From Phoronis australis (Eukaryota > Animalia > Phoronida): DNA of 64,000 nucleotides. The notes beneath the pieces are model-generated. The model ran no database searches, had not been told where the DNA came from, and saw nothing but the letters and a program-made list of their open reading frames with translations. The number at the start of each line of letters is the position of its first letter. The stretch's first letter is position 1. The stretch lies in the NCBI GenBank assembly GCA_002633005.1, contig NMRA01000589.1, positions 172,642 to 236,641 on the forward strand, read 5' to 3'. Made by a program: the position numbers and the translations under genes. Below, one piece after another: positions 1 through 56,599 of this stretch.

Positions 1-165
1 CATTGCTCCCTTTAGCGGCAATGTTTAAGTTAATGCCCATCCGCAGTATCTGCAATGTATGTGATGCACTTAGTGGGCGCCTTGCGTCTCCCTTGCGAGC
101 CAATTTTTCATGAAAGGCTAATGTTTTCCATTCATTTTCTATACAAAATTCGTGTATAATTTCAG

Positions 166-16470: not shown

Positions 16471-17009
16471 TTAGTATGTTTTGAACTGCACTCAGTGTTC
16501 ATTTATATGATTAGGTACGACGGTAAGCTATTTCACAGCACAAATGACGATGAGAAAAATTGAGTTTGCGCCCTTAGACAAAGTTAAATTTTGTTGATGG
16601 CCGCTGGTCTTAAGTTCAGCCTTGGCTTGCCGGCGAGGTCACGTGTAATGTCACTCATATATTTTATCATTAACCTTTATTAATTCACATCACAACATAG
16701 TATAGTTGAAAAACATCATGAAAGTGAATTTAAAATGTTTTTTTTTATTTTCAATTTCACCAAATCTTAAGGTCATCTGCAGTCGCTTGTGTCCCGCAAG
16801 CCTGTTCGTTCCACGTAAACCGTTGATCCGCATTTAGGTTTCCCAAGCTCTTCGAAAAACCATGTTGCAGCTTTCATTAGCGACGTGGGACTAAAATCAA
16901 ATAATGTACTTCTTGCTAAAATGGAGGACGATCGCAGTCTCCCGCGCCCTGGCATATCGCAACTTACCCATTGAGTGTCACACTTAAAGTAGTCACTTAT
17001 GAATTCATG

Positions 17010-20344: not shown

Positions 20345-23202
20345 ACCTGGAAACGTTAAGATTACCTGTTATTTTTAAAAGTTGCTTCTTAGCTCAAACG
20401 TTTGCAATTAGGCGCATGCACTTAATTCGGAAGTAGACATAACTTCACACATAAGTGCATAAATTTAAGCACGTACGTATCAGTTAATGCGCCAACATTT
20501 GAACACCGATATGTCCAAATATGGACCTTGCTTGTGTTTTTTACTGAACATTCATTACGAATTAGTTTTTGAGCAAAATGATTGTACCTCGGGCTCAGGA
20601 GGCTGGTTCTCGAAGAGTCTGTTGTCTTTTGGTTAAAATCAACCTGCAGACTACTTTGCCATTTCCACGAAATCAGGCTAAGGCTAAGCCAGTAAATCTG
20701 TGTTCAACTTGAAGCTGAGATTCAAATCCGTAATCTTCCCGGGAATAGACTCAAAGACAAAGCCAAAAAAAATCAACTTTTGGGTATAGACTAATGGAGA
20801 AATAGACAATAGGCTTGGATTTCCAAGAGTCAATTGCAATCAAGAACTATGCACGCTCTTTGTCTTCGGTAACCCGTATAAGTCTGTCTCAATCTGGGAG
20901 ACGGTTGAATGAAGAACTCTGAATGAATCGTTTTGTGGATTTCGAAGTGAACAGTACTTGTCTATGACTTTGAGGTTTCAAATTGTGGGACACTCATGTT
21001 AGAGGTCGATTCTTTTATAAACCAGCATTATGTTTCGTTAAAACAGTAGAGTTAGAAAATGGCAATTTTTCGAAAATTTTTGAATGACAAAACTGGCAAA
21101 GGTAGGACCGGCTGCAGTCTGGTTTTAAGTGACATTATCGACGAGAATTTCTTATTTGAGAACGGTGACAACGTGGATCGAAGTTGAAACTCTAGCAGGG
21201 CAGCCAAACACCCGGCTGGAAGATCTGAATCCCCCTTAGTATTTGGAAGTGTTTTTAAATCTATTTAATTCGATTAAGTCGTCGGCCTCGATTTCAGCGA
21301 ATGTCTGGCAGACAACAGCGAGAATGGCGATTTGTAATAAAATCACAAAAACGCAACAGATTTTATTGTTTACCAGTTGTCTGGTTAAAGCTAACTTAAT
21401 AACCTCAAAAATCTTTCTCAATCAACAATTGCGTTTTTGGGTTGTTAGAACGACAATGTCTCACGAATGCACATCATCCTGCAAGCGAAAACAATCTGCA
21501 TAGTAAATGTGAGTTCAACTAGGGCATTAAACTTTTAAGTTAAAACCATGCACGTACAAACTTGGGTGTCACTCTCTGCTTCGCTATGCTGGTAATGAAT
21601 ACTCTCTTTTCCACTCTACTGATCTACACAAAACAAAGCGTTCAGGTATATCGAAGATACCCAAAGGACTACATTGAGACATCTCGATACGGCTGAAATT
21701 GTAATACACATCCCGGACATTTCTAAATTCTACTCTATTCACACTATTCTCAAACCTAGAGACTCAAGGGTCAGTGGAATTGGACGGGTAGTCCATCTCA
21801 GAAACTCCTTTAAGCCAAATATTTACATATTAATTTACATATTTTAATATGTAAGAATTTGGCTTAAAGGAGTTAAATGTTTTTGCATGTAAACTGAAAT
21901 AAAACGCACGGATAGTATGACAATATACATTGGCAAGACGTTTCGAGCGGTCATTTCTTTGGTCATTTTCAGGATTAAAACATCCTTAGAAGAACGAGCT
22001 CGGGTATGTTTTAAACTCATGCTAGTCAGTGACGAGCACGTTCCGGAAACGGAATGCATTAACTACCGATTCACACAGTGTCGCTCATTCGATAAAATTC
22101 GTCATTTTCCGTACGACGTTGTAACGTACACAGATAAGTCGCTATACATTAAGCAGCAATTAACACGCTACGTCACACGGAAATGGACGAACTGTGTATC
22201 GAATGAGCGTATTCTTGTTGTAACGCCAAACACCGCAAAAGTACTTTGTGTAATTTCTCTATGAGCTGAACACGGCATCATTTTTGTTTATAAATCCATC
22301 ACATTCAAGCCGACATTTACTGTACAATATAGTCCACAAATTTGCCACTAGTTTCCCGACTGTACAAGATGTTCACCTTTTCTCACATCTTAGAAGTGGA
22401 AAAAGGAAGTTTGGCTTCACCTTTAGTGCAGTCTTCACCAGATTATAATTGCTGTTCTTATAGTTATACACCAATGCATTGAAAGAATTACAAAAACGCC
22501 TAACACGTTTGAACAAAGTTCGATTGATCGGAGAGTCAGTCATGATTTTGTAAAGTCATTACTCTGCGGAGTGAAAGGGTTTTTGTAAGGTATGACATAA
22601 CCACAAGCTGGTTCAAAACGACCAGTCACTAGATGTCAGTGCTTTCTTCATTCGCCACCGGATGGTACTTGATTTACTTTTTATAAAACTGTTATTTGCT
22701 TTCAGCTCATTAATTTCTAGACTTGCGCTTTGAAGAATCATAGAGAAAAATGGCGAAAATTCTCTTTTAATATTTTATACATTTAGACGATGGTTGACAC
22801 CAACGAATTTTTTATGCATCCACACAAACAGAATTGGTTGCATCACAGTCAATAAACATCCACATAAACGTATGTAGCTGCCTATCGCCATCAACTCCGT
22901 CTAGCGCCTGACGTCGACTTCTCCAACACTGTTAGTAGGGTTTTCACGAACACACAGGTGTTTTCCTTTTAACGACATCTCGGCGAATGCTGTCAATTTT
23001 CAGACGTTGCATCTCAATGGGTGCACGTCATTGTTGGGTCAACCAGCTAACAACATCTGATTGATTATTACAAAGGGAGTTACACTAGGTGGCCAAATTA
23101 AGACAACCTGTCTAACTGCATTACAAAAACAAATATAAGCACCTCTTACAGTAGGCCTACACCGTTTGCGCACATCGACGCTCAGCGTTACTTTTATTTT
23201 AG

Positions 23203-26200
23203 CCGTGCACAGTAATGAAGCAGACACCAGATGCTCAGAGGGCAAAGAAAAACTTCACTTCAATTTAGATGAAGACAGATGTGCTCAGCTCAAGTCCATA
23301 GCGAAGGCACTAGGATGTCATGTCATCGACGTTTTCGTGGCGTTTGTCTACGCAATTCTCGTACGTTACGAAGGAGCCGAAAAGTCGTCTTCTGTCGAAG
23401 TTGGCTTTGCAACTCCAAATGAAGATCAAACCTCAGAGACCACTCTATTCCTCTCAGACGAATTCCTGCAATTCACGGACATTCAGTTACCTACTGACAC
23501 ACAAGGGGATGTTGCTAGCTTAATACAGTCATTCAAGACCAGCTTGGGAAAAGTAGTCAACGCTGTCTCACCATACAAGACATCTTTGCCTAACATTCTT
23601 ATTGGTTTTAACTTCCCACGGGAATTTGAGAAGCATGTGGCGCTAGACAGGTTTGCAGTGCGGCTACAAGCAAACAGGTTTAAGAACAAAGACACAAACC
23701 TTGATACGTACAGATGCACGCTTGTATACAGTGGTGAAGGCAAAAGTGCTGGCCTCCTGAAAATGTTCGAAGGGCACCTCCTTACGCTTGTTCAAGAGGT
23801 CATTGTATCACGAGAAGTCGGCAAACAAATGAATCTCTTTAGCTTACCAATGCTAACTCCAAGCGAAAAGAGTTTTCAGGATCATTACAATGACACCAAC
23901 AGAAAGTATTCTGAAGGCAAATTACTGATGCATGAACTATTTGAGAAGAAGGTGAAGATGTCCCAGGACGCAGTTGCTGTTAAATGTGAAAACGAAAGTC
24001 TTACATATGCAGAGCTTGATCAACTCTCAGATAGTCTAGCTGAACAGATATTGTCAACGGCAGGCGACAACTTGAGCAATCGCGTGGTTGGCATAAGCGT
24101 TGACGCCTCAGTCCAAATGGTTGTTGGTCTCTATGCCATAATGAAGGCAGGATTGGCTTACGTACCTTTAGACCCAAGCTACCCCGAGGATCGTCTGAGC
24201 TATATGATTGAAAACTCCGAAGCGTCATTGATTCTTGCAAAGACAGACATGACAGACAAACTTAAGAAGTTTTCAGCGAACGTCTTGTGTTTAGATGATA
24301 TGCTCAACCAAGTAGAATTTGACCCAAACCACAACGTCATCAAGAGAAATAAGAAGGTTGACGTCAGACCAGACGACTTAGCTTACATCATCTACACATC
24401 AGGGTCAACGGGAAAACCCAAAGGGGTAATGATAAGCCACAGAAATGCAGTCAATACAATTCTGGACATAAACGACAGATACAACATTACTGCCAAAGAT
24501 AAGTTACTCCTTGTTGCATCTTTAAGTTTCGACTTATCGGTATATGACATATTTGGTATTTTAGCAGCTGGTGGGACCCTAGTCATCCCTGTCCCAGAAA
24601 TTCGCGGTGTCCCGGATCCCGCCTGTTGGATAAAAACTATGAAGCAAGAGAGCGTCACGTTCTGGGACTCTGCTCCAGCAGTATTAAGCCTTCTGGTAGA
24701 GTATCTTCACTCAGAGGGGGACGTCTTACCTCAATCATTACGTCTTGTAATACTAAGTGGTGATCGCATACCCCTAATGCTGCCTTCTCACTTGCAAGAA
24801 ATGGTGCCAAACGTACAGGTTATGAGCCAGGGGGGAGCAACCGAAGGTTCTATTTGGTCAATTTACTACCCAGTCAAAACAGTTAACCCTGCTTGGACAA
24901 CCATACCCTACGGCATGCCATTGACAAATCAGAAGTATTATGTTTTAGATGAGTTCCTGAACCCTGCACCTACCTTAGTGACTGGCGAGCTTTACATCGG
25001 TGGTCTCGGAGTAGCAATGGGATACATGAATAACGAAAAAGTCACCAGCTACCGTTTCCTCCCTAGTCCATTTAAAGACGGCGGACGCATTTACAAAACG
25101 GGAGACTTAGGTCGATTTCACCCTGAGGGGTACATCGAGTTCTGTGGTCGCATTGACAACCAAGTAAAGATCCGAGGATTTAGAGTCGAGCTATCGGAAA
25201 TTGAATCCGCCTTGATTAACCAAGACGGTGTGGACGATGCCCTAGTCATGAAGGTTCAGGAAAAGCTTGTTGCTTACGTCATACACGACCAACATGCTAA
25301 ACTAAACGCGACAGACCTTCAAAAGCATATTAGCGAAACCCTGCCAACATACATGGTGCCAGCATACATAGTTATCATGGATTCATTTCCGGTTACCGTG
25401 AACGGTAAAGTTAACCGAAAAAAATTACCTCCCGCGGAATCAACGAGCCACAGAACCGAAGGCACAGGACCACCAGACGAGACTGCCCAATCATCAGAGC
25501 TAAAACTTTCAAACAACGAACAAGCCATCGCATCTGTTTGGTGCGAACTACTGAACACCGACATCCAGTCAATAAAACCAAGATCGTCCTTCTATGAAGT
25601 TGGTGGAGATTCCATATCCGCCATGACTATAGTGACGCAGTTGAAAAAGAAAGGCTTGAGCTTGACTGTCCAACAACTTCTAAGTCAACCAACTCTAGAA
25701 CAATTGGCATTAGTAGCCAAACCCATCAAGAAGCGAGTGGGAACAAAACAACACGAAAGAGAGGCGTCATCACCAAACGTGGAACTGACTCCAGCACAGG
25801 TTTGGTTCTTTGAGCAGGAGTTTGACAACATCAATTTCTGGAACCAGTCTTTTCTCATGATACCAAAAGTTAGATTGGAAAAAGAAAAATTGTCAAATGC
25901 TGTCCATGGTCTTGTCTCAAAACACGAAATGCTGAGGTGTAAATTCACCAAAGATCATCTTGGAAAATGGAAACAGACAATAGGAAATGAAGTTTCCTTT
26001 GTTTTTGAAAATGAAGATATATCAATAGACTTACTTAACACTAATATTGACAAGCTTAGACGGTCACTTGACATTTCCAAAGGTATCCTTATTGCAGTTG
26101 GGCTATTTGAAATCGATGGAGAACAGAAAATCTTTGTCACTGTTCACCATCTTGTAGTTGATTTGGTATCGTGGCGCATAATTCTAGAAGACATCGAGTT

Positions 26201-29200
26201 TCTTTACACAGACTCCGCAACACAAGACACGACACTTTCATTTCAGCGATGGTCTTCACATCTTCAACAAAAAGCCATAAACTGTCGTAATATTAATATG
26301 GATGACAAGTTTTGTCTATTGCACTGCGACTTCGACAGCGGTATTGTCCCACGAGCTAGTTCCAGAAGCGTTCTCTCAACTAAGCTACCTCATGACATCA
26401 CTGCCCAACTGACGACCACTGCGAACGATGCTTTCAGAACCACTACCGTCGACCTCCTCTTGACGACACTGATGCTGTCGTACAACCACTGTCTTGGAAA
26501 ATCGGCCCTCCACATTGACGTGGAAGCTCATGGGCGTGAACCCTTAGATGCAGACATAGACATATCTCGTACACTCGGCTGGTTCATGACAATGTTTCCT
26601 CTAAAGCTTGAAGTCACACGAGAGCAATCGACAGAGGCAACACTTGAAAGCACAATTAAACGTACAAAAGAAGCGATCAGAAAAATTCCGCACAAAGGAA
26701 TTACATTCTGGTTATTGAAATATTTGAAGTCGCTCGACAGCATCAGCTTTCCATCGTCAGACGTCTTGTTCAACTACTACGGGAGGTTTGACCAGATACA
26801 AACAAGAAGTGATTTCTGGGACATGGATCCGAGTTATAGCTCTGGCGAAGATGAATTTGATGAAAGCGAAAAGCTAACTCATAAGCTAGTTGTTGAATGT
26901 TACATAAAAGATGAGCTTCTTCATCTTAAAATGTTCTACAGTACCGACTTCCACAAACCTAACACCATTCAAATTTGGCTACAGAAATGGAAAGAGTCGT
27001 TGCTAAAGACTGCTCGACACTGCGCACAAAATGGAGTGCAAGGATACACCCCATCAGACTTCCCGCTTTTGAGCCTGTCACAGGGACACTTGGACTATCT
27101 CTTGGCTACAAGATTAGCGCAGCTTGATCTGAAAGCCGAGCAGATTTCGGATATGTATCCCTGTACACCAATGCAAGAAGGTTTCTTGTTCAGTCTGTTA
27201 CAAGATCCGTCATCATATCTCATTCAACGGTCTTGCACGGTGAACGGTGATCTCGATCAAAATCAGCTTCACCAGTGTGTGGCAAAGGTCATCCAGCGAC
27301 ATGATGCACTGAGGACAAGGTTTTTCGTCGATAGACTCAATGGGTGCATGCAAATTGTTCGAAAAACACATGACACAACCTGGGCAGTCGAAGATTTGTC
27401 AAATGTCACGGAGTCTCAGGCGGAGGAAAGAGAGCAGCAGTATTTGAGTCAGGATCGCAAAAGAGGATTCAGCATGTCTGAGTCAATGATTCGATTCTGT
27501 CTCTTTGTCCTGACAAAGAGTAAACATCGACTCATTATGACCGTGCACCACAGTTTGTTAGACGGTATGTCCTGTTCCATTTTGTTGCAAGAAGTTGTCC
27601 AAGCCTGCAACAATTCGGCTTTACCGGAAGCGCCAAAATACAGAGAGTTTGTCCAAGAGGTTATGGTCTCGAGGCAGAGTGCCTACACATCAGAGGGATT
27701 TTGGAAGGAAGAGATGCAGGACCTCCCTTTCCTTGGGAACCTTCGCATGCTGTCCCCAGTCACACCTCTTCGAGGTCACGAAGTAATCCTGGAATCATTT
27801 GACGTAGTTCCAAACTTTTCAGCATACACTGAACAACACGAGATATCGCCTGCTGCGATACTGTGTGCTGCATGGGCGTTCATCATCAATAAGTACTCTT
27901 GTGATCCAAATGACGTCATATTTGGGCTCATAGTGTCTGGGCGAAGTTCATCAAATATCGACCAAATTAATAAGATGGTTGGTCTAACTATTAACACTCT
28001 CCCGATGCGGGTTAAAATTCAAGATCACCACGTCACCGAATGGGTAAAGTATGTACAACGAAAAATTGCATCCATTACAGCTCAAGAAAAATCGTTCACG
28101 ACTGATATTCAAAAGTGGTGTGGTCTAAACCCAGACGATAAGTTATTCGAAACCGCTATTTCTTACCAAACGGCCCACACAGAAGTTGACCAGACTCCAC
28201 ACGGCATTAGTATAACTGATGTTTATGACCACGAATATACAGAATATCCCCTGACTTTAGACATTTTAAATACGGGTACGTCTTTTCAAGTGAAAGCGAT
28301 TTACGATACCAAAATTATTGACGTTCTAGCACTGAAACAGATGTTGATGCAGTGGAAACAAGTCATCGGTGCCATAGTTAAGTCCGGCAATAGCTATAAA
28401 GTGTGCGATCTAAATATGCTCTCTAACGAAGAAAACACGATCGTTCGAGAATTCAATACTCCAAATGAATTCGACATAACCTTTGGTCATGTGAAAGGTG
28501 TTCATCAGCTGTTTGAAGACAAGATGAAGTTTTTACCAGCCAGTCATAAAGCTATTGAATCAAGACTCGGTTCTCTGACTTATGAGGAAGTCAACAATGC
28601 CGCAAATTTCATTGCTTCTCAACTGCGTGTCCTTGGCGTCAAGCGGGAGAGCAAGGTCGGCTTACTGCTCGATCGCAGTGAATCCATGCCAGTGTGCATG
28701 CTTGCAGTCTGGAAAGCAGGAGGAGCATTTGTTGCGATTGAAGACTCGCTTCCCAGCGACAGAATCAACTTCATCCTTCAAGACAGTGGATGCACAGTTG
28801 TTGTTAATGCTGCGAACATCCCGTTAGACGACATAGCAGGACGTTTGGCGCAAATCACAGTGAGCAGAAGCGATATTTGCGACTACGCTAGCCGTCATAG
28901 GGAAAACTTAGCGAGCTTAAACGCATGGCAAGACCTTGCATATGTGAGCTACACGTCAGGATCCACTGGACGGCCTAATGGGGTTTTAATTGAACACGGC
29001 GGGATAATTAATCTTTTGCTGTGTAAGCCTGGAGGACTGTTTCAAGTCTCGCAAAAGTCACGAGTCATGCAATTCTTTTCCGCTAGTTCTGACAAGGCTG
29101 TAGGTGAAATATTTGGAACACTTTGCCATGGCGGATGTCTTGTTATCGCCGATGAAAATTTCGCAGAAAGTCTTAAGTCTGTTGACACAGCTACACTTAT

Positions 29201-32200
29201 GCCATCAGGATTTGGAATGCTGGACTTTAACGATTATCCCAATCTTGAACTGATCGTTTCAACCAGCGAACCTTGTACCCAAGTGATGGTTAATTCTTGG
29301 GGGCGAGACCGAATTGTGGAAAATGCTTATGGGACAGCTGAGTGTAGCATTTTTACCAATGTTGGCCGCCTTTTGCCGCACAAAAGAATAACCGTAGGAA
29401 AGCCTTTGCCAAACACAAAGAGTTACGTCCTTGATAAAAATCTGAGCTTATTACCAGTGAACGTAACAGGACATCTTTACATCGGGGGAGTTGCCGTTGC
29501 ACGAGGTTACCACAATAGACCAGATTTAACTGACAGTGCCTTCATTGAAAATCCTTTCGACAATGGATACTTCTATAAGACAGGCGATTTAGCTAGGTGG
29601 CTGGACACGGGAGAGATCGAAATAATTGGTCGTCAAGACAGCCAGGTACACTTACGAGGAAAAAGAATTGAGTTGATGGAAATAAGATCTGCACTCGAAC
29701 AACTCCCAGAGGTAAAACAAGCACACGTTGTATTGCAAGACAAGCAGTATATAATTGCTTACGTGGTAGCGTCAGCTGAATGCGACATCATTGATAGGCT
29801 CAAAAGGCAACTGCCTAGTTTCATGGTGCCAACATCAGTTATTTCCGTGGATTTTCTCCCGTTGACATCGGGAAATAAGATTGATGACGCTGCTCTTCCC
29901 AAGTTCACTCCCAAGCCATCTCATGATGACTCTCGAACGCCACTCAATGACTTGGAATTTCTGACTTTGAAAGCATACAAAGAAGTTATAGATCCCAACT
30001 TCACTATGGACGACGATTTCTTCAGTCTCGGCGGTCATTCACTTCTCGCGATAACATTGAAAACTGTTTTGGTTGAGAGTCTTGGATATGAGATTTCTAT
30101 GACGGACATCATGCGATACACAACACCTGCAGAACTTGCAGATCAACTGGGTAGAAGGATGTTAGCTCCACGGAAACTCCAAACATCTACCAGACTTATT
30201 CCAAAATCCTGTCCATCGGATGAAGCTGTTATTAAAGAACGAACTTCCTTTCATCAAGAACAAATGTGCTTGTTGTACGAAGTGATACAGGACAGCCCAG
30301 TGTACAACGTGTCGCTCATTTTGACTTTCCGTGGTCAGCTGAACGTTGAGTCTTTGAAACAGTCACTCATCGCGGTAACTCAAAACCATCACTCATTCAG
30401 AACAGCTTTTGAAATTGCAGAAGACAAATTCGTGCAAGTAGTGAGACCGGTGAACGAGACAGCATTTGACTTTGAATACCATGAAGGTGAGCACAGCGAA
30501 GCCGAAACGAGAGAGATCATCTACACAGAGGCATCCAAACCGTTTAACTTGTATAAGCTTCCACTAGCAAGATTCCGATTGGTGGAACTCAATGCACAAG
30601 AACACAGAATGCTACTCTTGATGCATCATGCAGTAACAGACGGTGCTTCACTGAAGATCATTGTGGATGAAATGTCCGAACGTTACCACTGTTTGTCAGA
30701 AAATCTTAATTATAACGTACCTCCCCAAACCCTGGAATATATTGACTACAGCATCTGGGAGAGAAGTGTCCTAGAGACCGAAACCTTTGAAGCTCAACTT
30801 TCTTTCTGGAAACGCCAGTTGGAATACGCTCCTTCGTTACTGGATTTACCGTTGGACAGACCCCGCCCAGCAGTTCCGTCATACGACGGTGCGTCGGTGT
30901 TCTTTTCTATTCCAGAAAGTGTGACAAACAANTGTTAGCTCCACGGAAACTCCAAACATCTACCAGACTAATTCCAAAATCCTGTCCATCGGATGAAGCT
31001 GTTATTAAAGAACGAACTTCTTTTCATCAAGAACAAATGTGCTTGTTATACGAAGTGATACAGGACAGCCCAGTGTACAACGTGTCGCTCATTTTGACTT
31101 TCCGTGGTCAGCTGAACGTTGAGTCTTTGAAACAATCACTCATCGCGGTAACTCAAAACCATCACTCATTCAGAACAGCTTTTGAAATTGCAGAAGACAA
31201 ATTCGTGCAAGTAGTGAGACCGGTGAACGAGACAGCATTTGACTTTGAATACCATGAAGGTGAGCACAGCGAAGCTGAAGCGAGAGAGATCATCTACACA
31301 GAGGCATCCAAACCGTTTAACTTGTATAAGCTTCCACTAGCAAGATTCCGATTGGTGGAACTCAATGCACAAGAACACAGAATGCTACTCTTGATGCATC
31401 ATGCAGTAACAGACGGTGCTTCACTGAAGATCATTGTGGATGAAATGTCCGAACGTTACCACTGTTTGTCAGAAAATCTTAATTATAACGTACCTCCCCA
31501 AACCCTGGAATATATTGACTACAGCATCTGGGAGAGAAGTGTCCTAGAGACCGAAACCTTTGAAGCTCAACTTTCTTTCTGGAAACGCCAGTTGGAATAC
31601 GCTCCTTCGTTACTGGATTTACCGTTGGACAGACCCCGCCCAGCAGTTCCGTCATACGACGGTGCGTCGGTGTTCTTTTCTATTCCAGAAAGTGTGACAA
31701 ACAAGCTGATGAGCTTGACATATAAGTTCGGGGGAACGATGTTTACAGCACTTCTTACGGTATATGCACTCTTGATACGCATATACTGCCAAGCAGACGA
31801 CATTGCACTGGGAGCGTTTGTTTCCGGAAGACACAACCAAGGTACAGAGAATATCGTGGGTTATTTTGTGAACACCCTCCCTCTTAGAGTTAAGTTTAAC
31901 AAGAAACAAACGTTCAACGATATGCTCATTATGATTAAAGACCTTATGCTGGATGTTCTAAACAACCAGGACGTGCCTTTTCAAAAAATCTTAGAAGCAC
32001 TCAGCATCCCACGTGACACAGCCTACCACCCAATCATTCAAGCCGCTACGATCTTGCAAGAAGGACTAGCAAGCAGACAAGTTAGTAAAGGGTTGAACTT
32101 AAACGTTGACAGTTTCGAACAGTTCACAGCAAAATTTGATTTAAACTTGGAGTATTTACGACATCCGAATGGCCAGATTTCAGGGCAATTTGTTTACAAT

Positions 32201-32547
32201 ACTGACGTCTTTAACAAGTCCACTATTGAGCGGATGACTGATCACCTACTCTATTTGTTCGATTTGGTTACAAGAGACTGTGACACTCCAATGAACCATC
32301 TGTGCATGCTACCTCCCAAAGATTTGGAGCGCATAATGTCTTTCAACACGACTGGAGACTGTACGGACGTTCGCATCCACCGACAGTTTGAAATGAGGGC
32401 AGACGAGTCGCCAGAGGAGATCGCGGTCGAAGAAAAAAGGCGCCATATAACTTATGGTGGACTGAACAAAGCCGCAAATGACTTAGCACGTCAGCTGCGA
32501 TCACTTGAAGTGACCTTTGATGTACCAGTGGCCTTGCTGGGAGAAAG
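23203..32547 (+). CDS. NRPS giant exon (partial C, A1, T1, E1, C2, A2, T2, C3, start of A3)
   Basis: ORFs 23166-30938 and 31037-32551 form one frame once the duplicate is removed; acceptor TTTTATTTTAG|23203, donor AG|GTAAGA at 32548 (phase 2). Confidence 0.9.
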
Positions 32548-35500
32548 GTAAGAAATCATTTATTTTGGTAAAATTTAACGTCCCAGTGACTTACAGGAGT
32601 TTTCCGCAGATAAGCCCACCCGATGAAACGCTCATGGGCGTTTATTTGGTGTTACAACTGGTATCAAGTGTCTAGATAGTGGGCCGTTTATTCGGAAGAT
32701 TTCCTCTTAAGAGCCCACAATGAGGTCTGGAGGTGCACATTAATCTTCTTGTCCCACTGGGCAGATATTGCAAAAATTCATGGGCTGTTACACAATTAAC
32801 GTTGTTAACCCGCATTCACAACAATCCTTTTAGGACTACCAATCCACCCAGAAAGGCTGTTTCACTTACAAAAAATACGTACAGCGCTTCCTTTCGTCAT
32901 TTGCGTAGCCGAAACTATGACTTTCCATTTACACGCCCCCTTTTCCGAATAAACGCCAGGGCGTTTATTTGGCGTTACTAAAACGCCTGAAATTTTTCAC
33001 TTTCCGAATACACCCCATGGCTTATCCCCGGAAATATCGGTATTATGGAAAATCTTGTTTTAACATTGGTAAAACATCACCACTCGGATGCTTGTGACAT
33101 GTGGCAAAACTCTTCGCTTTTTCATGTTTTAGGACGTCCTTGCCAAATGCCAACTCGAACTAATCACTATGGAAATATATACATCAGTTACCTACTTTTT
33201 GTTTTAGAAACCTTGAGCTCATCGCTGCTATCCTGGGTACATTAAAAGCAGACGGAGCCTTTGTTTGCATAGACGTATCCTTGCCCCAAAATCGCATCGA
33301 CTACATGCTCGAAGATTCGGAATGTCACGTTGTCGTAACCTCGCAACGCATCCTTAATTCCGGAATCCTAAAGCATTTTGGGGGACATGTCATATGCCTA
33401 GACATAGAGAAATGCACAACAAAATACCCTATTCGTCTCAGCTCTGATAAAGACAGAGAAGTGCAAGCCCAGAGCAAAGTGACGTCCAGTAATATGGCAT
33501 ACATAGTATACACATCGGGGACAACCGGGAAGCCGAAGGGTGTTATGGTAACACACAAAGGCGTAGAAAATCTTATCCCAAAAATGAACAAGGCGCTAGG
33601 TGTAAGGAAGGGAAGGAAAATAACACAGTTCTTCAACATAATGTTTGATGGCGCGTATCAAGAAATATTCATGGCGCTCTCCAGCGGAGCTACTCTTGTA
33701 CTTCGTGAGACGGACTACCGCAACACGTTGAAGTCGGTGGACTTTTCTATGATGACGCCAACTGTACTTGCATCTTTGGATCCAAGAGACTTCCCAAACC
33801 TAAAAACTGTGGCTGTTCTTGGCGAAATATTGCCCGAATCTGTGGTCGCGTGCTGGGAGGATCACGTAGACTTATTTAATGAATATGGCCCGTGCGAGGT
33901 GACAATCAACTGTACTATTGGTAAGGTGAATAACAGATCGCAAGTGACAGCTGGAAAGCCAATAGAAAATTGCACGACCTTTGTGCTTGGAGACGACATG
34001 AACCTGGTTCCAATTGGCGTGAAAGGAACAATTTTCATTAGCGGACTCGGTGTTGCAAGAGGATACCTCAACAGACCGGACTTGACCCTTCAGAAATTTG
34101 TAGATAATCCATTCGGTGAGGGTAAACTCTACAACTCCGGAGACGTTGGATGTTGGACCGACGACGGTGAACTCGTGGTCAATGGACGAAAAGACAGACA
34201 GGTAAAGTTCAAACGGTGATCATAAGATGGGCTGTAATTTTTTCACAATGATGTCTTGCTCGCAATCCGATCTTTCCCAAGAAGTTTCGAGATATTCATT
34301 GTCAGTTTGCCGTATGACTGTTGATAGGACAATAAACGGATAGGACGTGAATTTTAACGAGCTTTTATGATACTATGCAACAAATAAAACTGGTATGTTA
34401 CATAACTTACGTTCAATGTGTATAACTGAGACATAGCTTCAATACTACGACAAGAATTTGTCATGCTGCTTTGCATTCTTTATTATTCATTCCCGTGTCA
34501 ACTCAATCAAAAATTGATAAACCCATGGGTTTCAATGGTCGTTCTAGGTCAAATTGCGAGGATTTCGAGTAGAGCTCGGGGAAGTGGAACACGCGCTTGC
34601 TACGTTGGAGGGCATTGGGAACGCTGCTGTGTTGATGAAAAAGGACATTTTAGTAGGATATGTCACGCCCGATATCGGTAAGTGTGTCAATCCGTTTACT
34701 TAGACCGGTTTCCGGTATGAAATTGATCCTAACTTTACCTAGATGAAGATTGATTTCTGGGTTATGGAAAAGCTGGCAGTAAATTATTGTTTGCGAACGT
34801 GCTCGGCACATAACGTGACTGACACACTGTGACAATCCAAATTATCGAGTCTGATCCCAAGCAATAATGAACTGTGAGTTCTTCTACAACCCAGGAATTT
34901 TGTATCCGTCAGTGTCATAAACTAAAAGTTGTTTACGGAAGGCGAGTTAATAGCCGCTGTAAGAAGCCACTGCTAATGGTCACCTCGATGTCAACAAATT
35001 TTTAATTGAAACTAAATGAGCCTTATTTCGCTATCTGAGTAAAATCATTTTTGTTTTATATCTCGCTGAAGCTGCAGTGTGTCTACAATCTCTTCTCAAA
35101 ATCTTGTCTTCACAGGCACGACGAAAGCCCAAGAGCTTAAACAGAAACTCGAAGAAACTCTTCCGCGGTATATGATACCCACAGTGATCGTTCCTCTGGC
35201 AAAATTCCCAATGTCAACAGCCGAAAAGGTAAATTATCGCGCATTGCCCGAACCGAACTTAGTGCAACAGGAAACTGCCACAACAAAAGAAAAAATGCTC
35301 ATACAAATTTGGAGCGAAGTTCTTGGAATCAGCCCATCAAAGATCAAACCAACAGATTCCTTCTTTTATTTGGGTGGAGATTCAATTTCTGCCATGAAAG
35401 TTTTCACTTTGGCAAGAAAACAAGACTTACGATTCACAGTACAACAAATTTTCCAAACGCGGAATTTGTCTCAACTCGCAGCTGTAGCCAAATTTGAAAA

Positions 35501-38500
35501 GTCATCTATAGAGGCAGATCAAGTCGAGATTTCTGGACTCATACCTTTGACACCAATTCAAGAGTGGTTCATAGGCTTGGACATGATGAACCTCAACCAT
35601 TTCAACCAGTCTGCTCTCCTCAAGCCTCATAACATACTTGATGCTCAAGCACTTCAGAAAAGCATTGACAAACTTGTGTCGCATCATGACATGCTTAGAG
35701 TAAAGTTCCATTTCAGAGACGACGGTACAGTCACGCAAGAAATCAAATCTTCAAATGATTGCATAAAACCAAAACTATTACACAAAGCTGTATCGCAAGA
35801 CCAGGTGAATGACACACTGCACCAAATTCAATCATCTTTGAGCATAACAGATGGCCCTGTTGCAGCTTTCTGCCTGCTAGACGTGAAGAGTCAAGGGCAG
35901 TTGCTCTTCATAACTGTTCATCACGTCGCAATTGACTTGGTTTCATGGCAAATCCTTCTTGAAGACCTTGAGCTGTTGTACTTAGGCAAGAAGTTACAAC
36001 CTAAAACAACGTCGTTCAAAGCATGGTCAGAGGGTCTCTCGAATGAGTATCGTTTAACTATGTCAACAGATACTTGGCCCAAATGGCAGAATACAGCATC
36101 AAAAACTTTTGATCACTTCCTGTACGGGAACAAGATTAACGAGACTGGGGAAAACCGCACACTGAAACTGGAAAGTATTTCACTTCATGCTGAAACAACG
36201 GGCAAACTGCTTTCTCTTCAGGGAACCCAGGGGAGCGATTTAACTTCCGTTAACGACGTGTTATTGACTGCCTTAATTGTAGCATATCACAGATGTACTG
36301 CGATGACATCTCTTGCTGTAGAACAAGAATGGTTTGGAAGGGAACCTTGGAATGAGAAATATGATGTGTCCAGAACAGTAGGTTGGTTTACCGTCATGTA
36401 CCCTGTTACAATGACAATTGACAAAAATGGAGAATTGGAAGATCATCTTGAAAAGACAAAATCAATTCTGCGACGAGTTCCACAAGGCGGGCTTCCATTC
36501 GGTGTCAATAAATACCTGAATAAAGACGAAGACTACAGGTTCCACCAAAGTTGTGACGTTCTCTTCAACTACCACGGTAGTGCAACACAATTTTCCCAAG
36601 ACCTGACGCTTTGGGACGTATGCATGGATGGGGAATTCGTCTTCACAAACCGAGGCAAAGATGAGAAGTTATCCCATAGTCTTGTAATTGAGTGTTCCGT
36701 GCAAGACGAGTGTCTGAAGTCAATGTTCATTTATATGCACGATCAGAGAAGTCCGTTCATAAAAGAATTGGCTTCAACCTGGCTCGAAATCGTCAATTCC
36801 ATTATGTCAACTTGCAAAGTAATGCAGGTTGATAAAGGCATAGATCCATCCAATGATACCCTTCCTGCGCTTAATACAACTCAAATCCTAACAGACAACG
36901 ACACCGAAGCCATTTACGAATGTACCCCACTTCAAGAAGGTTTCATTCTTTCACTGCTTCAAGATAAATCTTCATATCTTGTCCAAATGGCAATGGATAT
37001 TGAAGGAAAGTTGGATGTACCACGGTTCATAGACGCTTGGAATGTAGTCATTCGCCGCCACCAGTCTCTAAGAACCTCGTTTGCAATCGAAACAAAGGAC
37101 CACATGTTGAGGCAAAACGTCAGAAGACAAGCAAACATTCAGTGGACAAAAGATCACTGGACGGATCCACTGCAGCAAGAGAACGAGTATGTGATCAAAG
37201 ACAGAAACGTAGGATTTGAAATGAAGGAGGTAATGATGCGCTTTGCGTTAATGAAACAACCTGATGACACATACAGGTTTATCTGGACGACCCATCACTC
37301 CCTGATTGATGGTTGGTCAACTCAGCTCGTGTTAAGAGAGGTTCTCTTAGCCTATCATCAACAGGAACTGCCTCCTCCACCACCTCCATTCCAAACTTTT
37401 GTCGAGTATTGTAAATCGCGAAATACTTCAGCCGCAAAGACTTTCTGGGGTGAATTCTTTGAAAACTTACATTCAAAGTTTTTAATTACCGGAAAGGAAA
37501 CCGTAAGACCCAAAGAAGTCTCATCGTCAAATGTGAAGAATTTCACCAAACAACTTGAAGTACGCACTGATAACCTCTGGCGTTTTGCACGTGAAAACAG
37601 TCTAACAATTTCCAGTGTCGTTTTTGGTGCATGGTCTATCGTGTTAGATAGATTTTGTAGCAATGGAGGGAACGATTGTGTGTTCGGCGTGGTACTGGCT
37701 TCCAGGAGTGCAGAAGTTGAAGGAATAGAAGACATGGTAGGTCTCTTGATTAACACATTGCCACTTCGAATCACATTTCCAACGAGTGCAGGTATTTCGA
37801 TGCTTGACTGGTTGCATTCAGTACAGTCCCGCCAAAGCAGTATAATGGAGTACGACTACTGCAACTTAGCAGATGTCGTACGATGGAGTGGCCTACCAAG
37901 AAACCAGAATATCATGGATTCTTTGGTAATTTTTGAAAATTATCCTCCGATGCACGACGTGGAAAACGGCGAAATAGCGCTCACTAATCTCCAAGCATAC
38001 GAGAAAGTACAGTTTCCCATAACAATAGAGGTTGCCGCGGACTCCGACTATGTTAGTGTCACGTGCATGCATGATACCAGCCGGATAAGCGATGATCTAG
38101 CTAGCGAGATGCTAGATTACATGAACAGTGCAATCAAGGAGCTGCTCAACTATGACACAGAGAAACCGATAGTTGAAATGGACATCGTCAAGGCGAGACC
38201 TGGGAGAGATGCCAAAGGAGTACGTTTGGACATGTGGAACGGGGTGGGATCCACAAGCCAACTTAAATGTTATATCAGGGATCAAAAGGGACGCATGACG
38301 CCACCAGGTATTGCCGGAAAACTAGAGTTCAGCACTAGTAATGGCGAGGCATGTCAAACGAACGTTGTGGCTCTGCTACATAACAACGGCGATATAAGCG
38401 TTTTATGCAAGAAAGGCAATTACGAACTTGAGGGTGCAGTTAAGTATGTTACGTTTGAAACTGAAGAGGGCGCGATAGCACTTACTCAGAAACCAGTTTC

Positions 38501-41500
38501 TTTTGAGGTTTTGAAAGAATTTCAAAAAAAGCACCTCAAGTGTATTCCAGTTCACAGCATTGAGTTTGTTCACGAAGAACTCATCAATCTCGTAACAGAT
38601 GAGGTAACGATCGATCAAGTGAGCACAATACAGGAAACACAGAGAGAAAGATTCGTTGACGAGTTCCAGATGACTTATTCCCAGAAACTGCTAAGAGATA
38701 TTTGGAGCCAACTTTTAGAAGTACCGCGGGATGACATCAAACTTGACCACTCGTTCTTTGACTTAGGTGGGACATCTATAAAGGCAATTAGCATGACTTC
38801 TTTGGCAGAAAAGAAAGGGCTGCATTTGAATTTAAATGACATCTTGGAGTATCAAACTCTCAGAGGCATTTCAGCTGCTGCTAAGACACAGACAGGTGAG
38901 TTTTTCAAGCAAAATATTTCGTGTTTTCGAACAAAATTTAAAATTAGTATGTCTTTTAATAAGTATGCTAAAGAAAACTAACATTTCAGGTATTTTACAG
39001 GCATAAGTTTTTCATAATTGTTAGAATTTATTCAGGAATAACAAACCATTTTTTCTGCAAGAAATTAAACGGCCAACATAATGTGCCAGAGCCTTGGTAG
39101 GCGAAACAGTTGGCCAACTCTGAGAGTAATTACAGTTTCGTTACTCTCAGGCCATCGTAGTTCGTGTCCACCAGAAACTTTATCAGAAGCATTTCAACCG
39201 ATTCTTGGAAGTTTTAGGTAGCTACTTCAGGTTCCTAAATCTCTACAGTCATTTATACCAAACCAATTAAAACAAATGAACGTGAGAGGGGACTGTCCAC
39301 GAAATGCAGGCGCTAGTAACAGACTTCGGGGTTATATGTGTTTGAATTCCACGAGGACCAGGCAAGTCTGGTAGCAGAAAATTAATGGAAATGTACACTG
39401 CACGCTCTTAAAAACCATTTAGAAAATTCTACATTTTCTACACTATTTCGTTGAACTGATATCTTCCGCCAAAAGTATTGCAAAGGCATAATTATTTAAT
39501 TTTGGTCCTTCAGTTTATCTGTCTTTTTAGAATTTCCAGCTTCGGTGATATCAAAACTTGACATTTCGTGATGAGGTCATTGCTTACAAAGTCGCTTGTT
39601 TCCTTGTTTTTAAAGTGACATGCTTGCTTCGCGTGGCACAAGTATGACCGACTGAAGTATTTTTACTTATTAACAAATTTTAACTTCTTACAGACAATGC
39701 AAACGACATTCTGGTGCGTCTGAATGAAGGAGAGAAGGACCGTATACCAATCGTTTGCGTCCACGCAAGCGATGGTGGCACGTCATCCTACGCGTACCTA
39801 GCAGGTAAATATTTCGCGTGTCCATTGTTGTTATTACATGTACTGCACGTGCAGTGCAGGTGACTGCGTACGAGTCCTCTAACTACAGTAGTAACCAAAC
39901 TGAATTGGAAAAAATACTGTTTGCCATCATGACGGCTACTTACCATCAAAAATGATTACTTACCACCAAGGCGGCAAACTTCTAATTACAGAATGGCTTA
40001 TAAGCCACCATATTAACTTTCCTGTTAACTGCTCTCCATTCTCGGTCACAAATGAGAGAAAATTTTTCTAACGACGAATTTGACTTCGGCCCAGCCATCA
40101 TGACGGGGAATCCCGGGTCATTTTTTCTGAAACACTTCTGGCTCGCGCTGTGCATAGATCTCTTCGTCGGAGGTATAAGCGCAAGAGGATTAAAGAAACT
40201 TTATCGGCATTATTACAGGGAAACTCATTTTGGGAATTGTTGTTCGGTGGGATAAACTTCTTAATTTTATTACTTTTGACCAGCTTCCCGTCCAGTAACG
40301 CTAGGACGTTGCTAAAAACCGACTTCGCGAGATTACGTGACATGATATTGTCGTGTATTGAGAACATGTGACTTTGGCTTGATTTTAGCTAGGTCCCAGC
40401 GTTACTGAACGCACGCCAGAACTATCGAAGAACATCTATCGTCTTTTTGTGATTTTATTACAAATTGCCAATTTTCGACATTTCCTGCCAGGAATTCGCC
40501 GAAACCAAGGCATGTACGCTTAACAACTCTGATATTTATCGAGGGGCCTTAGCTCTGTTAGCAGACCATAGAACTGTGATGGGGGGGTTGTATGCAGGTT
40601 TGATTGATCGCCGAGAGTGATCTCACAAAATTATTTTTCTCGCCAATAATGTCCCTTCATACCGCCAACCAGACCTTGCTTCACTCAAAGCGAAAAAACG
40701 AACGAATACGCGAATACTACTACATGTATGGAACGGCCGGCCACAAATTCGTGAAACTGTGAAAAACGGAACACAGCGAATGATATGCACCACCCAACCA
40801 GTAAATAAAACAAGCCCTCGGTGAGGGTTTGCAGAAAACGACGTTTTTACAGAACCTGAGCTTATACCAGGTTCGCTAGTAGGCTCACAGCTGTTGTTTA
40901 TGCAAAAATGAGCTGAACTCCACCAGCCTGTATACATAGGTGTTGGTTCATTCTACATATAGTAACAGAAAAGCAGGCGGCAAATCTCATACTTTAGTAG
41001 CAAAATAAGAGCGAAATCACGAGAAGCTGAGTTCATAACCAACGCATTCAAAGCCCTTAGAAAGGATACACAGAAGGTTGTTGGATGTTTTATGTTAGCT
41101 AGACCGCCATCCGACGGTAATACTCGGAACTAGAGAAAATATTAGATAAACACTATGTCGAGCAGCTACAGAACGGAACACGTTTCACGCACTTTCCACC
41201 AGAAAAAAGGCACACGCAGTTCTGTTGTACAAAAGATTTGAAATTATCCATTGGTCATGAAAGAGCATTCAACCAAACACTCGCCTATACTCTTGAGGAA
41301 ACTTAATGACGTACTATCACGTGTTCATTTTGCAGGCAACTTAAACCGACATCCATTATACGCATTCCGCTTAAAAGAGGATACACCATTCGAGTCGATT
41401 GAACAACTTTCTGCTTTGTACGTGGAAAGAATGGTCTCACTCGACTTCTTCGCCAACGTGCAACCATACTTACTGGTGGGGTATTCAACAGGAGGCGCAG

Positions 41501-41976
41501 TGGCGTTCGAGATGGCGCTTCAGCTTGAGCTAAAGCAATACCCACCCGCCAGACTGGTTCTGCTCGACGGCACACCAGAGTTTATGCGGAGAACTTATCA
41601 CGGCATCAGTAGTAAAAGCGAAGACGAAATTGTCGATGTAAAGAATTTCTTGACAAAAACGTGGGACGAGAAAGGACTGGACAAATCTGACCTTCAGAGA
41701 GCGTTGACCAACTTCAACAACACCGTCTCTCAGTACGCTAGCTACTCGCCGACTGAATTGTACCACGGCAGCACCGTTCTTGTTCAGCCAGCTAGCAATG
41801 AAAATAATGAGTTGTTGATGGCGGCTATCTCGCAGATGCCAAGTGAAGATTATGGGCTACAGGCGCTGTGTACCCAACCTGTGAAGATCGTAGTGGTGGA
41901 GGGAGATCACTACAGCATGATGCGAGATGCAGACGGAGTGATATCTCATACAGTTGTGGAAGGACTATCTCAGTAG
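23203..41976 (+). CDS. Spliced multimodular nonribosomal peptide synthetase, ~4,740 aa: C(partial)-A1-T1-E1-C2-A2-T2-C3-A3-T3-E2-C4-A(vestigial)-T4-TE
   Basis: Three YTSG(S/T)TG.P.GV adenylation motifs; four carrier serines (GGDSI, GGHSL, GGDSI, GGTSI); C-domain HHSLLDG, HHAVTDG, HHSLIDG; two E domains (HH...DLVSW, EAHGRE/EWFGRE, RT.GWF, FNY.G); TE with GYSTGG, LLDG, GDHY. Exons 23203-32547 (less the 773-bp duplicate), 33208-34201, 34548-34677, 35116-38895, 39694-39804, 41336-41976 join in frame. True start codon not resolved. Confidence 0.95.
30160..31704 (+). repeat. 772-bp direct duplication around a single N (30932); probable unmerged haplotype overlap
   Basis: 30160-30931 matches 30933-31704 apart from six substitutions that I could find. 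Confidence 0.9.
33208..34201 (+). CDS. NRPS exon (A3 core)
   Basis: Acceptor TTTTGTTTTAG; restores ER|NLELIAAILGTLKADGAFVCID; donor CAG|GTAAAG (phase 0). Confidence 0.92.
34548..34677 (+). CDS. NRPS exon (A3 motif A8 region)
   Basis: VKLRGFRVELGEVEHAL...LVGYVTPDI; TAG acceptor, GTAAGT donor (phase 1). Not shown in this frame by the ORF track. Confidence 0.92.
35116..38895 (+). CDS. NRPS exon (end of A3, T3, E2, C4, vestigial A, T4)
   Basis: Acceptor TCTTCACAG, donor GTGAGT (phase 1/1); within ORF 35079-38981. Confidence 0.92.
39694..39804 (+). CDS. NRPS exon (thioesterase N-terminus)
   Basis: DNANDILVRLNEGEKDRIPIVCVHASDGGTSSYAYLA; TTCTTACAG acceptor, GTAAAT donor (phase 1/1). Confidence 0.9.
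41336..41976 (+). CDS. NRPS last exon (thioesterase catalytic core)
   Basis: TTTTGCAG acceptor; PYLLVGYSTGGAVAFEMA, LVLLDG, EGDHYSMM; stop TAG at 41974-41976. Confidence 0.92.
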
Positions 41977-53458: not shown

Positions 53459-54735
53459 CCAGAAATAACTTAAATGTTGTAAAACCCCGTAATTACCATA
53501 TTTGGCGATAGCTTGGATTCATACCTGAGTACTACGAGAGAGACAGCCAGTTTGATAGATATGCTTGAAGATATTCTACTGGTTTGCTCAGAAATCCCTG
53601 AAACATGTCGTTTAACGAGATAATGGATGCAAGTAAAGACGAGCAGTCAGCAGTACGTTTTTTACAACAGTGGCACGATATAGGTTATAGTGAAAACGCA
53701 CATTTTTAAATGTGTCGATTATTGAGGGTGAAATCGACACATTTCGTTTCGTGACGAAAACCCGCGGAAACTTCCTAATCATGCCCGGAGTAACAAAAGT
53801 CCGCAAACCTCATACTGCACCACATATCAGTAATGTATCCGACGCCGTGAAGAAAAGCAGGACGTAGACTTTAGATACATGTATACTTGGCGTGCCGCCA
53901 GGAATATTTTTGTTAATTGTAGTGATAAATTGTGTTAACGAACTCTATATTATTGTCTTTGGTAAATACACTATACACTATATTATCGTAAATGCTCTAT
54001 ATTATTGTCTATTTTAGCCAATATAATTCTTAAACATTTATCGGGTCTAATTTTCTCAGAACAATTCATGCTCGCACCCAGCCTTCAATATGGCTTAATA
54101 TTGAATTGCCCACGTTGTGGACCTTTCAAAAACAAAAGAGCGGCGGACTAAAAAAAGTATTAGAAGAGGGAGCACCACTGTGAATTGCACATTTGCGCTT
54201 ATTTAATGGAGTTTTGTGAGCATGCAATTTGCCTAGCACATACATTTAATGGCCGTGATCCACCTTGTTTTCGAAACAGTGTTATTCTTAATTAAAATAT
54301 AAGCATTGTTGTGCTTCCATTAATGTATAATTCAATTTTAGAAATGTTGGAATTTTTTTAACATTATATCACAATTAGTTTTCCTGTATATTTTTCTGAA
54401 TTCAGCTTTAATTTAAATGATTTAAAAGTAGAAACCATATGTTTTCAAAGAATGTTTCTAAGTCATTTAAAAGCAAATTGAAACCGTTCAAATTCAAGTA
54501 GTTGTACGATAGCCACCCCTACGTTGGAATAATTTGAGGAGTGGCTGTTTTAATAAGGTATAGGTGTCATTTTGAAGTGTAAACGGTCAGTTTTGCGAGT
54601 GTCCACCTGTGCGATGAAAACCAGACCACTTCCGCTACGATGGTCCTATAAAACGAGTCCTAGGAAGCGTTCGGCTGCTTGTTGTCATTCATTTGAAATG
54701 CAATTACCACTTTATCATGTTGAATAAGAGTAAGA
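53459..54735 (+). repeat. First copy of a duplicated segment (second copy ~56402-58328), lacking the transposase core
   Basis: 53459-53663 matches 56402-56602, and 53812-54735 matches 57420-58328. Confidence 0.85.
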
Positions 54736-56395
54736 AATGCAATTACCACTTTATCATGTTGAATAAGAGTAAGAAATGCAATTACCACTTGATCATGTTG
54801 AATAAGAGTAAGAAATGCAATTACCACTTGATCATGTTGAATAAGAGTAAGAAATGCAATTACCACTTGATCATGTTGAATAAGAGTAAGAAATGCAATT
54901 ACCACTTGATCATGTTGAATAAGAGTAAGAAATGCAATTACCACTTGATCATGTTGAATAAGAGTAAGAAATGCAATTACCACTTGATCATGTTGAATAA
55001 GAGTAAGAAATGCAATTACCACTTGATCATGTTGAATAAGAGTAAGAAATGCAATTACCACTTGATCATGTTGAATAAGAGTAAGAAATGCAATTACCAC
55101 TTGATCATGTTGAATAAGAGTAAGAAATGCAATTACCACTTGATCATGTTGAATAAGAGTAAGAAATGCAATTACCACTTGATCATGTTGAATAAGAGTA
55201 AGAAATGCAATTACCACTTGATCATGTTGAATAAGAGTAAGAAATGCAATTACCACTTGATCATGTTGAATAAGAGTAAGAAATGCAATTACCACTTGAT
55301 CATGTTGAATAAGAGTAAGAAATGCAATTACCACTTGATCATGTTGAATAAGAGTAAGAAATGCAATTACCACTTGATCATGTTGAATAAGAGTAAGAAA
55401 TGCAATTACCACTTGATCATGTTGAATAAGAGTAAGAAATGCAATTACCACTTGATCATGTTGAATAAGAGTAAGAAATGCAATTACCACTTGATCATGT
55501 TGAATAAGAGTAAGAAATGCAATTACCACTTGATCATGTTGAATAAGAGTAAGAAATGCAATTACCACTTGATCATGTTGAATAAGAGTAAGAAATGCAA
55601 TTACCACTTGATCATGTTGAATAAGAGTAAGAAATGCAATTACCACTTGATCATGTTGAATAAGAGTAAGAAATGCAATTACCACTTGATCATGTTGAAT
55701 AAGAGTAAGAAATGCAATTACCACTTGATCATGTTGAATAAGAGTAAGAAATGCAATTACCACTTGATCATGTTGAATAAGAGTAAGAAATGCAATTACC
55801 ACTTGATCATGTTGAATAAGAGTAAGAAATGCAATTACCACTTGATCATGTTGAATAAGAGTAAGAAATGCAATTACCACTTGATCATGTTGAATAAGAG
55901 TAAGAAATGCAATTACCACTTGATCATGTTGAATAAGAGTAAGAAATGCAATTACCACTTGATCATGTTGAATAAGAGTAAGAAATGCAATTACCACTTG
56001 ATCATGTTGAATAAGAGTAAGAAATGCAATTACCACTTGATCATGTTGAATAAGAGTAAGAAATGCAATTACCACTTGATCATGTTGAATAAGAGTAAGA
56101 AATGCAATTACCACTTGATCATGTTGAATAAGAGTAAGAAATGCAATTACCACTTGATCATGTTGAATAAGAGTAAGAAATGCAATTACCACTTGATCAT
56201 GTTGAATAAGAGTAAGAAATGCAATTACCACTTGATCATGTTGAATAAGAGTAAGAAATGCAATTACCACTTGATCATGTTGAATAAGAGTAAGAAATGC
56301 AATTACCACTTGATCATGTTGAATAAGAGTAAGAAATGCAATTACCACTTGATCATGTTGAATAAGAGTAAGAAATGCAATTACCACTTGATCAT
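54696..56395. repeat. 39-bp tandem array, ~43 near-identical copies, ending at a single N
   Basis: Unit AAATGCAATTACCACTTGATCATGTTGAATAAGAGTAAG with no spacers. Confidence 0.97.
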
Positions 56396-56599
56396 NATTA
56401 ACCAGAAATTACATAAAGGTTGTAAAACCCCTTACCATATTTGGCGATAGCTCGGATTCATACCCGAGTCCTATGAGAGAGAGAGCCAGTTTGATAGATA
56501 TTCTTGAAGATATTCTACTGGTTTGCTCAGAAATCCCTGAAACATGTCGTTTAACGAGATAATGGATGCAAGTAAAGACGAGCAGTCACCAGTACGTTT

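Follow-up and report, generated by a model that had tools for sequence, protein, structure and literature searches.

The 64,000-nucleotide stretch of Phoronis australis DNA analyzed here (contig NMRA01000589.1 of assembly GCA_002633005.1, positions 172,642 to 236,641; hereafter the window) carries a gene for a nonribosomal peptide synthetase (NRPS) at 23139-41976 of the plus strand. Its seven coding stretches join across five GT-AG introns and at one overlap of the assembly into 4,763 stop-free codons, along which Pfam, NCBIfam and a motif map place condensation (C), adenylation (A), carrier (T), epimerization (E) and thioesterase (TE) domains in the order partial C, A1, T1, E1, C2, A2, T2, C3, A3, T3, E3, C4, A*, T4, TE, where A* is an adenylation remnant. 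With repeated C-A-T modules in one frame and core motifs intact, the gene belongs to the multimodular NRPSs. We are concerned mainly with its fourth and last module, which consists of C4 (36909-38195), A* (38196-38687; motif map and alignments), T4 (38688-38876) and a TE split between a first exon of 37 codons (39694-39804; frame and splice ends) and a main exon (41336-41976).

Between C4 and T4, where the initial annotation had reported a collapsed A domain of ~160 aa with no P-loop, Pfam leaves a gap of 164 aa containing no AMP-binding match, and an NCBIfam scan of 38160-38660 gave no match. The distance from the HHxxxDG motif to the carrier is 488 aa in module 4 versus 825 and 841 aa in modules 2 and 3, so that ~340 residues of the A core are missing. 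The P-loop, A7, A8 and A10 motifs are each present in A1-A3, and none of them is intact in module 4, in which the C-A linker and, behind it, the final third of an A domain remain. Because the P-loop, the substrate pocket and the A10 lysine are absent, A* is predicted to be a domain that, by established NRPS enzymology, cannot adenylate. The His motif of C4 (37293), the Ser of T4 (38775) and the Ser (41485), Asp and His of the TE are all kept (motif map and PDB matches), as the initial annotation had stated; the span that it gave to the module, 38160-41976, holds two introns (38896-39693 and 39805-41335) that are predicted by their frame and GT-AG ends. Of the A6-A8 traces that it described, that of A6/A7 is weak but above chance, scoring 6.3 bits against a profile of 68 A-domain C-terminal halves (3 of 2000 shuffles did as well; with A1, A2 and A3 of this gene as references, the score was reached in 5, 30 and 93 of 500 shuffles), and that of A8 lies in the right region with a register that looks shifted in an ungapped alignment. 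Its anatomy of the module was otherwise right, and what it overlooked are the type of C4 and its place behind an epimerase, a second deletion of 25 residues, and the likeness of the TE to fatty acid synthase (FAS).

An assembly deletion, which the initial annotation had itself raised as a possible cause of the gap, is ruled out. Three contigs cross the site with no joint and no loose end (X1, 38064-38920; X2, 35100-38998; X3, 35100-39900, in a single piece); they come from three runs of one sample, perhaps that of the window, and were assembled separately. X2 and X3 are different alleles, differing for example at 38212, which adjoins the deletion. Since three separately assembled contigs and two alleles cross the site jointless, the deletion is no assembly artifact.

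C4 lies directly behind E3. The exon 35116-38895 opens with the C-terminus of A3, T3 and E3 (35116-36908), and E3 has E-type motifs at 35919, 36321 and 36369 and a match to TIGR01720 with an E-value of 1.4e-12, below the cut-off of that model. C4, recognized by Pfam and with HHxxxDG intact, finds its best PDB match in the C domain of microcystin McyB (E-value 6.5e-62), which we take to be of the DCL type, and C4 itself is classed by these matches as a D-selective DCL domain. As described in PMC8471579, an E domain yields a mixture of L and D forms, of which the following C domain selects D only. In a tree of C domains with 97 rows the placement of C4 is not resolved.

T4 is a well-formed carrier by Pfam (E-value 8e-15) and by an AlphaFold model built on a 12-row alignment, in which its predicted local distance difference test score (pLDDT) exceeds 90 and its TM-score to a solved carrier is 0.94. 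Scored against profiles of carrier types, T4 reaches 70.5 bits as a carrier before E, 65.3 before C and 58.9 before TE, and T1 and T3 behave alike. A predicted phase-1 intron (38896-39693; GT...AG ends and frame) follows directly, separating T4 from the TE, and another predicted intron (39805-41335) lies within the TE. The main exon, which contains the Ser-Asp-His triad, encodes 212 residues for which animal FAS provides the top 10 of 19 PDB matches, the best with 58 bits and with both halves aligned; no type I NRPS TE was found below an E-value of 0.01 in this search, and the first exon alone had no PDB match. A bacterial TE used as a control shows the reverse pattern: it scores 82-88 bits with the TEs of NRPSs and Pks13 but 44 bits with FAS, there over the N-terminal half only. 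The best bacterial TEs reach 46 bits against the window TE (the four top plasmid matches, 232 records) and 37 bits (33 fetched TEs), and its C-terminal half scores 25 bits with animal FAS versus at most 11 bits for four bacterial TEs. By sequence closeness, C-terminal half included, the TE is thus nearer to animal FAS than to NRPS TEs. Given the FAS-like scores, the phase-1 intron after T4 and the fact that T4 scores worst as a carrier before TE, it is likely that the TE was added from a FAS or FAS-like gene of the host.

The second deletion in A* removes 25 residues from the A6-A7 loop and is of equal length in two bacterial C-A*-T proteins. The first, P0216, is a partial Blastocatellia protein (locus L007) with the order DCL-A*-T-TE, chosen from 587 matches for its 92% coverage. 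The window A* aligns with that of P0216 without a gap over 63 aa at a score of 72, which none of 2000 shuffles attained; 113 canonical domains gave 66 at best and a median of 37. The score of 72 is somewhat inflated because P0216 was selected for likeness. The second, L012 (WP_126391570.1, from a Pseudanabaena plasmid), is a C-A*-T protein with both deletions, an LCL-type C and no carrier Ser. The spacing from A6 to A7 is 12 residues in the window A*, P0216 and L012 versus 33-54 in 93 canonical domains, and all three thus share the boundaries of the deletion. This 12-residue form is rare: the spacing was seen four times among 642 sequences scanned, all from the P0216 and L012 proteins; a metagenome collection gave one match, the contig already known; none was found in 401 Acidobacteriota genomes or in three other genomes; and short spacing was absent from six further loci fetched. 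Seven of the eight plasmid matches to the P0216 A* or to a herbicolin-like match, together with locus L008, are canonical or unrelated, and only L012 is an A*. The C domain of P0216 is 57% identical to the C of a full module and stands apart from C4 in the best 97-row tree; a forced clade of the two is 47 log units worse but, with p = 0.173 in the approximately unbiased test, is not rejected. Repeated collapse to a minimal spacer appears at least as likely as a single origin with the bacterial A* domains. An ESM Atlas search with A* gave only low-score Ig-like clusters, which were not used, and a 74-row alignment that set A* on the wrong part of the A domain was dropped.

Both bacterial loci have neighbors of their own. 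At L007, the Blastocatellia gene (3-2318) is followed by genes for an MFS transporter and a peptidase-like membrane protein. The L012 gene (10669-13005), in which Phe replaces the carrier Ser, stands next to NRPS, polyketide synthase (PKS), luciferase-like (LLM) monooxygenase and ExbB/ExbD/TonB genes and forms the carrier-dead terminal module of a likely siderophore cluster. An internal E-DCL-A*-T arrangement is also seen in the Actinoalloteichus NRPS P0328/P0329 (residues ~2620-3100), the remnant of which keeps the small subdomain only.

Exon 35116-38895 shows purifying selection, with a pN/pS of ~0.08: it has at least 22 variants, and among the 22 listed 17 are synonymous and 5 are not, over 808 synonymous and 2969 nonsynonymous sites (40 variant sites were listed, and 12 more lie outside the list). 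Eight of the 10 variants listed in C4 are synonymous, and the only one listed in A* is nonsynonymous. These counts bear on the possibility that module 4 is decaying, with release taking place from T3, or that the gene is becoming a pseudogene. Such decay would account for an A* that is far more diverged than the bacterial A* domains and whose single listed variant changes an amino acid, and also for strand-biased RNA depth of ~1-2 across the gene in two runs (X5 and X6; library strand not established) and the lack of coverage on the exons in a third (X7). It is nevertheless highly improbable, considering the stop-free frame throughout, the retention of all catalytic motifs and the low pN/pS of this exon, C4 included.

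The reading that we tentatively favor, though at somewhat less than even confidence, is that module 4 serves as a chirality-gated relay that hands the finished D-ended tripeptide to T4, from which the TE releases it with no fourth residue added. E3 would epimerize the end of the tripeptide on T3, and C4 would accept the D-ended form only and transfer it as a thioester from T3 onto the empty thiol arm of T4, which is presumably phosphopantetheinylated; A* would act only as a structural spacer, and the FAS-type TE, probably derived from the host and perhaps grafted through exon shuffling, would hydrolyze the tripeptide off T4. We prefer this to a fourth residue, amine capping or decay because an E domain stands before the module, three active sites are kept and a hydrolase has seemingly been gained; the relay gives each retained catalytic part a role and calls for no enzyme beyond those observed. 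The initial annotation had listed mechanisms that cover the live options, each with published precedent, and had left them unranked; the DCL-type C4 and the FAS-like TE now shift the odds toward a stereo-gated relay, and the TE, if acquired later, suggests that it is needed for release. A1 looks cysteine-specific, as its pocket presumably reads cysteine-like against known Cys codes, and its best single-A-domain PDB match is BmdB; of the three A domains, A1 alone yielded a substrate prediction. The predicted product is linear, a tripeptide whose residues 1 and 3 are D and whose residue 1 is cysteine-like.

Bacterial proteins provide a parallel for such an ending. Among 483 proteins examined, a terminal E-DCL-T-TE without an A domain is present in P0129, P0132, P0134 and P0044, and the window gene shows this arrangement too, its E being followed at once by a C of the DCL type, a T and a TE, with no working A. 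The A domains of P0129 are presumably Asn-type and Ser-type, going by their pockets, and a member of its cluster has 3164 aa, the size of ocfD (9495 bp); from size and pockets we infer that the P0129 family is of the OcfD type. Occidiofungin has eight residues, ending in Asn7 and D-Ser8, as far as described in PMC9494966, PMC10897925 and PMC4906002, and, because the eight residues end in D-Ser8, the last C-T of the OcfD type appears to add nothing. For the extra C-T unit of GliP, a role in release rather than elongation is described in PMC10086836. The fungal siderophore and epipolythiodioxopiperazine (ETP) synthetases named as precedents in the initial annotation are less close than the bacterial C-A*-T-TE of glidonin and the bacterial E-DCL-T-TE proteins.

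It is also conceivable that a fourth amino acid is loaded onto T4, either in cis through renewed action of one of A1-A3 or in trans through a stand-alone A domain, and that the TE releases a tetrapeptide. Such loading likewise uses all retained motifs, and C4 looks like an ordinary DCL domain, fit for forming a D-L peptide bond. In nemamide NRPS-1 one A domain is reused, with C3 and A3 placing two D-Asn (PMC8363725), and loading in trans from PKS-1 does not apply there; reuse of A domains has been proposed for fungal ferrichrome synthetases (PMC2644324), and for WS9326A an A-less module is reported to be loaded in trans (PMC7539972). On the other hand, no stand-alone A domain was found among the open reading frames of the 64-kb window, within which animal pathway genes need not cluster, and A* may occupy the place where an incoming A domain would dock. 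We regard a fourth residue as rather doubtful.

Several observations weigh against the relay. T4 differs between carrier types by margins of just 5 and 12 bits, and the FAS affinity of the TE is a 12-bit score margin with FAS references that are vertebrate only. In the structure prediction of C4-A*-T4 that the initial annotation had proposed, the 12-row AlphaFold model so confident for T4 did not confirm the fold of A*, with pLDDT below 50 over residues 36-139, from an alignment ~10 residues out of register in mid-A*; a single-sequence fold of C4-A*-T4 gave a pLDDT of 32. No RNA read falls in the bin 38159-38319 at the deletion point and no spliced joint is among the RNA joints listed, and because reads located in introns are present as well, the RNA neither confirms nor contradicts the gene model. 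No orthologue was found by word-indexed searches (365-5000 aa) and a full HMMER search, which gave distant NRPSs only (no more than 45-46% over short carrier stretches); a distant orthologue could be hidden because the HMMER search was swamped by carrier repeats. In no record found is P0129 named OcfD, and a relay role for the last C-T of OcfD is not stated in the literature found. Moreover, in the account of glidonin (PMC10587159), a C-A*-T-TE of the same order was found experimentally to add a free amine and mutation of the T Ser abolished the product, so that the retained T4 Ser does not discriminate between the readings.

Glidonin thus introduces a further alternative, in which C4 condenses the D-ended tripeptide with a free amine, A* and T4 stabilize the fold and the TE edits only. 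In module 13 of GdnB, identical in order, C13 joins putrescine, A* and T13 stabilize, and the TE is dispensable for release (PMC10587159, where a Ser/Asp/Glu amine pocket is described for the C domain), and StaS, a C with a truncated A region, is reported to make amides from free amines (bioRxiv 10.64898/2026.06.15.732422). A TE seemingly acquired later is harder to account for if it were for editing only, and C4 lies near no amine-adding C in the tree, although none known is among its rows; we consider amine capping unlikely. A relay of the D-ended tripeptide remains our preference. The wider scenario, in which the animal acquired an NRPS from bacteria, the terminal part of the assembly line disappeared and the host's own FAS TE was attached by exon shuffling, the A-less module serving as a stereo-selective adaptor for a D-Cys peptide, is as a whole speculative and somewhat improbable.

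The other parts of the gene, all on the plus strand, are as follows. The first exon as modeled (23139-30159; open reading frame, Pfam and motif map) comprises the partial N-terminal C, A1, T1, E1, C2 of the DCL type, A2 and T2, and E1 matches TIGR01720 above the cut-off (NCBIfam). The N-terminal half C at 23139-23900 is degenerate (Pfam E-value 0.014), and of the six variants listed for its 50 initial codons, four alter the protein. Upstream, an ATG frame at 22790-22853 resembles a C-domain start motif and stops after 21 codons, and RNA covers 22500-23163. The exon continues at 30933-32547 with C3, of the LCL type, and the start of A3 (Pfam, motif map and C-domain tree). A fifth C domain near 30160-30932 was ruled out: 772 bp are duplicated around a single N at 30932 (window 30160-31704), the first copy (30160-30932) repeating 30933 onward with six differences, five of them synonymous, so that two alleles joined in the assembly mimic an extra half C domain. 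The core of A3, including its P-loop, lies at 33208-34201 (Pfam and motif map), and a small exon at 34548-34677 carries A3 from motif A8, where GT-AG ends bring back both the frame and the motif. High-copy repeats with inverted-repeat-like read joints, resembling miniature inverted-repeat transposable elements (MITEs), are found at 32600-33020 and 39950-40480 in two of the NRPS introns.

The window as a whole is gene-poor, with ~39% G+C. At 114-4323 lie exons that likely encode a single-pass membrane protein with a CUB domain (weak Pfam CUB match, E-value 0.0035), interrupted by an N run at 1745-2309. A long tandem repeat with a 45-bp unit and open frames on both strands extends over 54660-56450 and ends at N, and broken fragments of ISXO2/IS1595-like transposases and reverse transcriptases resembling long interspersed nuclear elements (LINEs) are present at 56871-57508, 15730-16563 and 18981-19814. 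Together with the gene-poor composition and the CUB match, such elements are a sign of animal DNA.

Animal NRPSs are described as scattered over several phyla (PMC10531068), few of them being characterized according to PMC11869996 and PMC11258130, and in the open-access literature we found neither a C-A*-T-TE end nor a FAS-type TE in any animal NRPS. An A-less terminal module is itself already known; the novelty lies in an animal gene with introns that combines such a module with two epimerases and a FAS-like TE. Multimodular animal NRPSs with canonical epimerases would mean that peptides with D-amino acids are made in animals by the bacterial route. A natural fusion of an NRPS carrier with a FAS-type TE, if true, would be the evolved counterpart of a domain swap attempted by engineers, and the graft would illustrate the adaptation of a transferred assembly line to parts of the host. 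Module 4 also offers a small, expressible test case for terminal C-A*-T-TE and E-C-T-TE units, in which relay, amine capping and trans loading could be compared.

Among the known systems compared, P0216/L007 and L012 share both A* deletions with the window gene and are known from sequence alone. ACV synthetase has an N-terminal partial C domain. It resembles the window gene in having three A domains, one of them Cys-type, in the D-residue at the end of its peptide and in release by a TE, as described for fungi, bacteria, springtails and Plectus (PMC10531068); in the window gene, by contrast, the Cys-like A comes first, a second E domain is present and the TE is preceded by an additional C-A*-T, and identity with an Aad-Cys-Val synthetase with a single terminal E was therefore rejected. 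Nemamide NRPS-1 of Caenorhabditis elegans, compared by description only (PMC8363725), is likewise a multimodular NRPS from an animal; it builds in D-residues, ends in a TE and has fewer A domains than the residues that it incorporates. It differs in being a polyketide hybrid in which the source of D-Asn is not located, whereas the window gene has two canonical E domains. The C-T unit of GliP and the T-C repeats of fungal ferrichrome synthetases also contain an extra C and T with no working A (PMC10086836 and PMC2644324, as far as these describe them), but they are fungal and end in C or T with no TE. In the occidiofungin/burkholdine enzymes of the OcfD type (the P0129 family), a D-residue comes last, and the module behind it consists of a DCL domain with carrier and TE, no A domain being present; they differ from the window gene in having no A* remnant, a bacterial TE and a cyclic product. 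Glidonin GdnB module 13 of Schlegelella brevitalea (PMC10587159) has the same C-A*-T-TE order, with a core-less, non-activating A* and with the C His, T Ser and TE Ser kept as far as this source describes it. The window gene shares this terminal architecture of a C, a core-less partial A, a T and a TE; the glidonin system is bacterial and has a doubled TE, whereas the window gene places C4 behind an E domain, carries a more eroded A* and has a TE resembling that of FAS.

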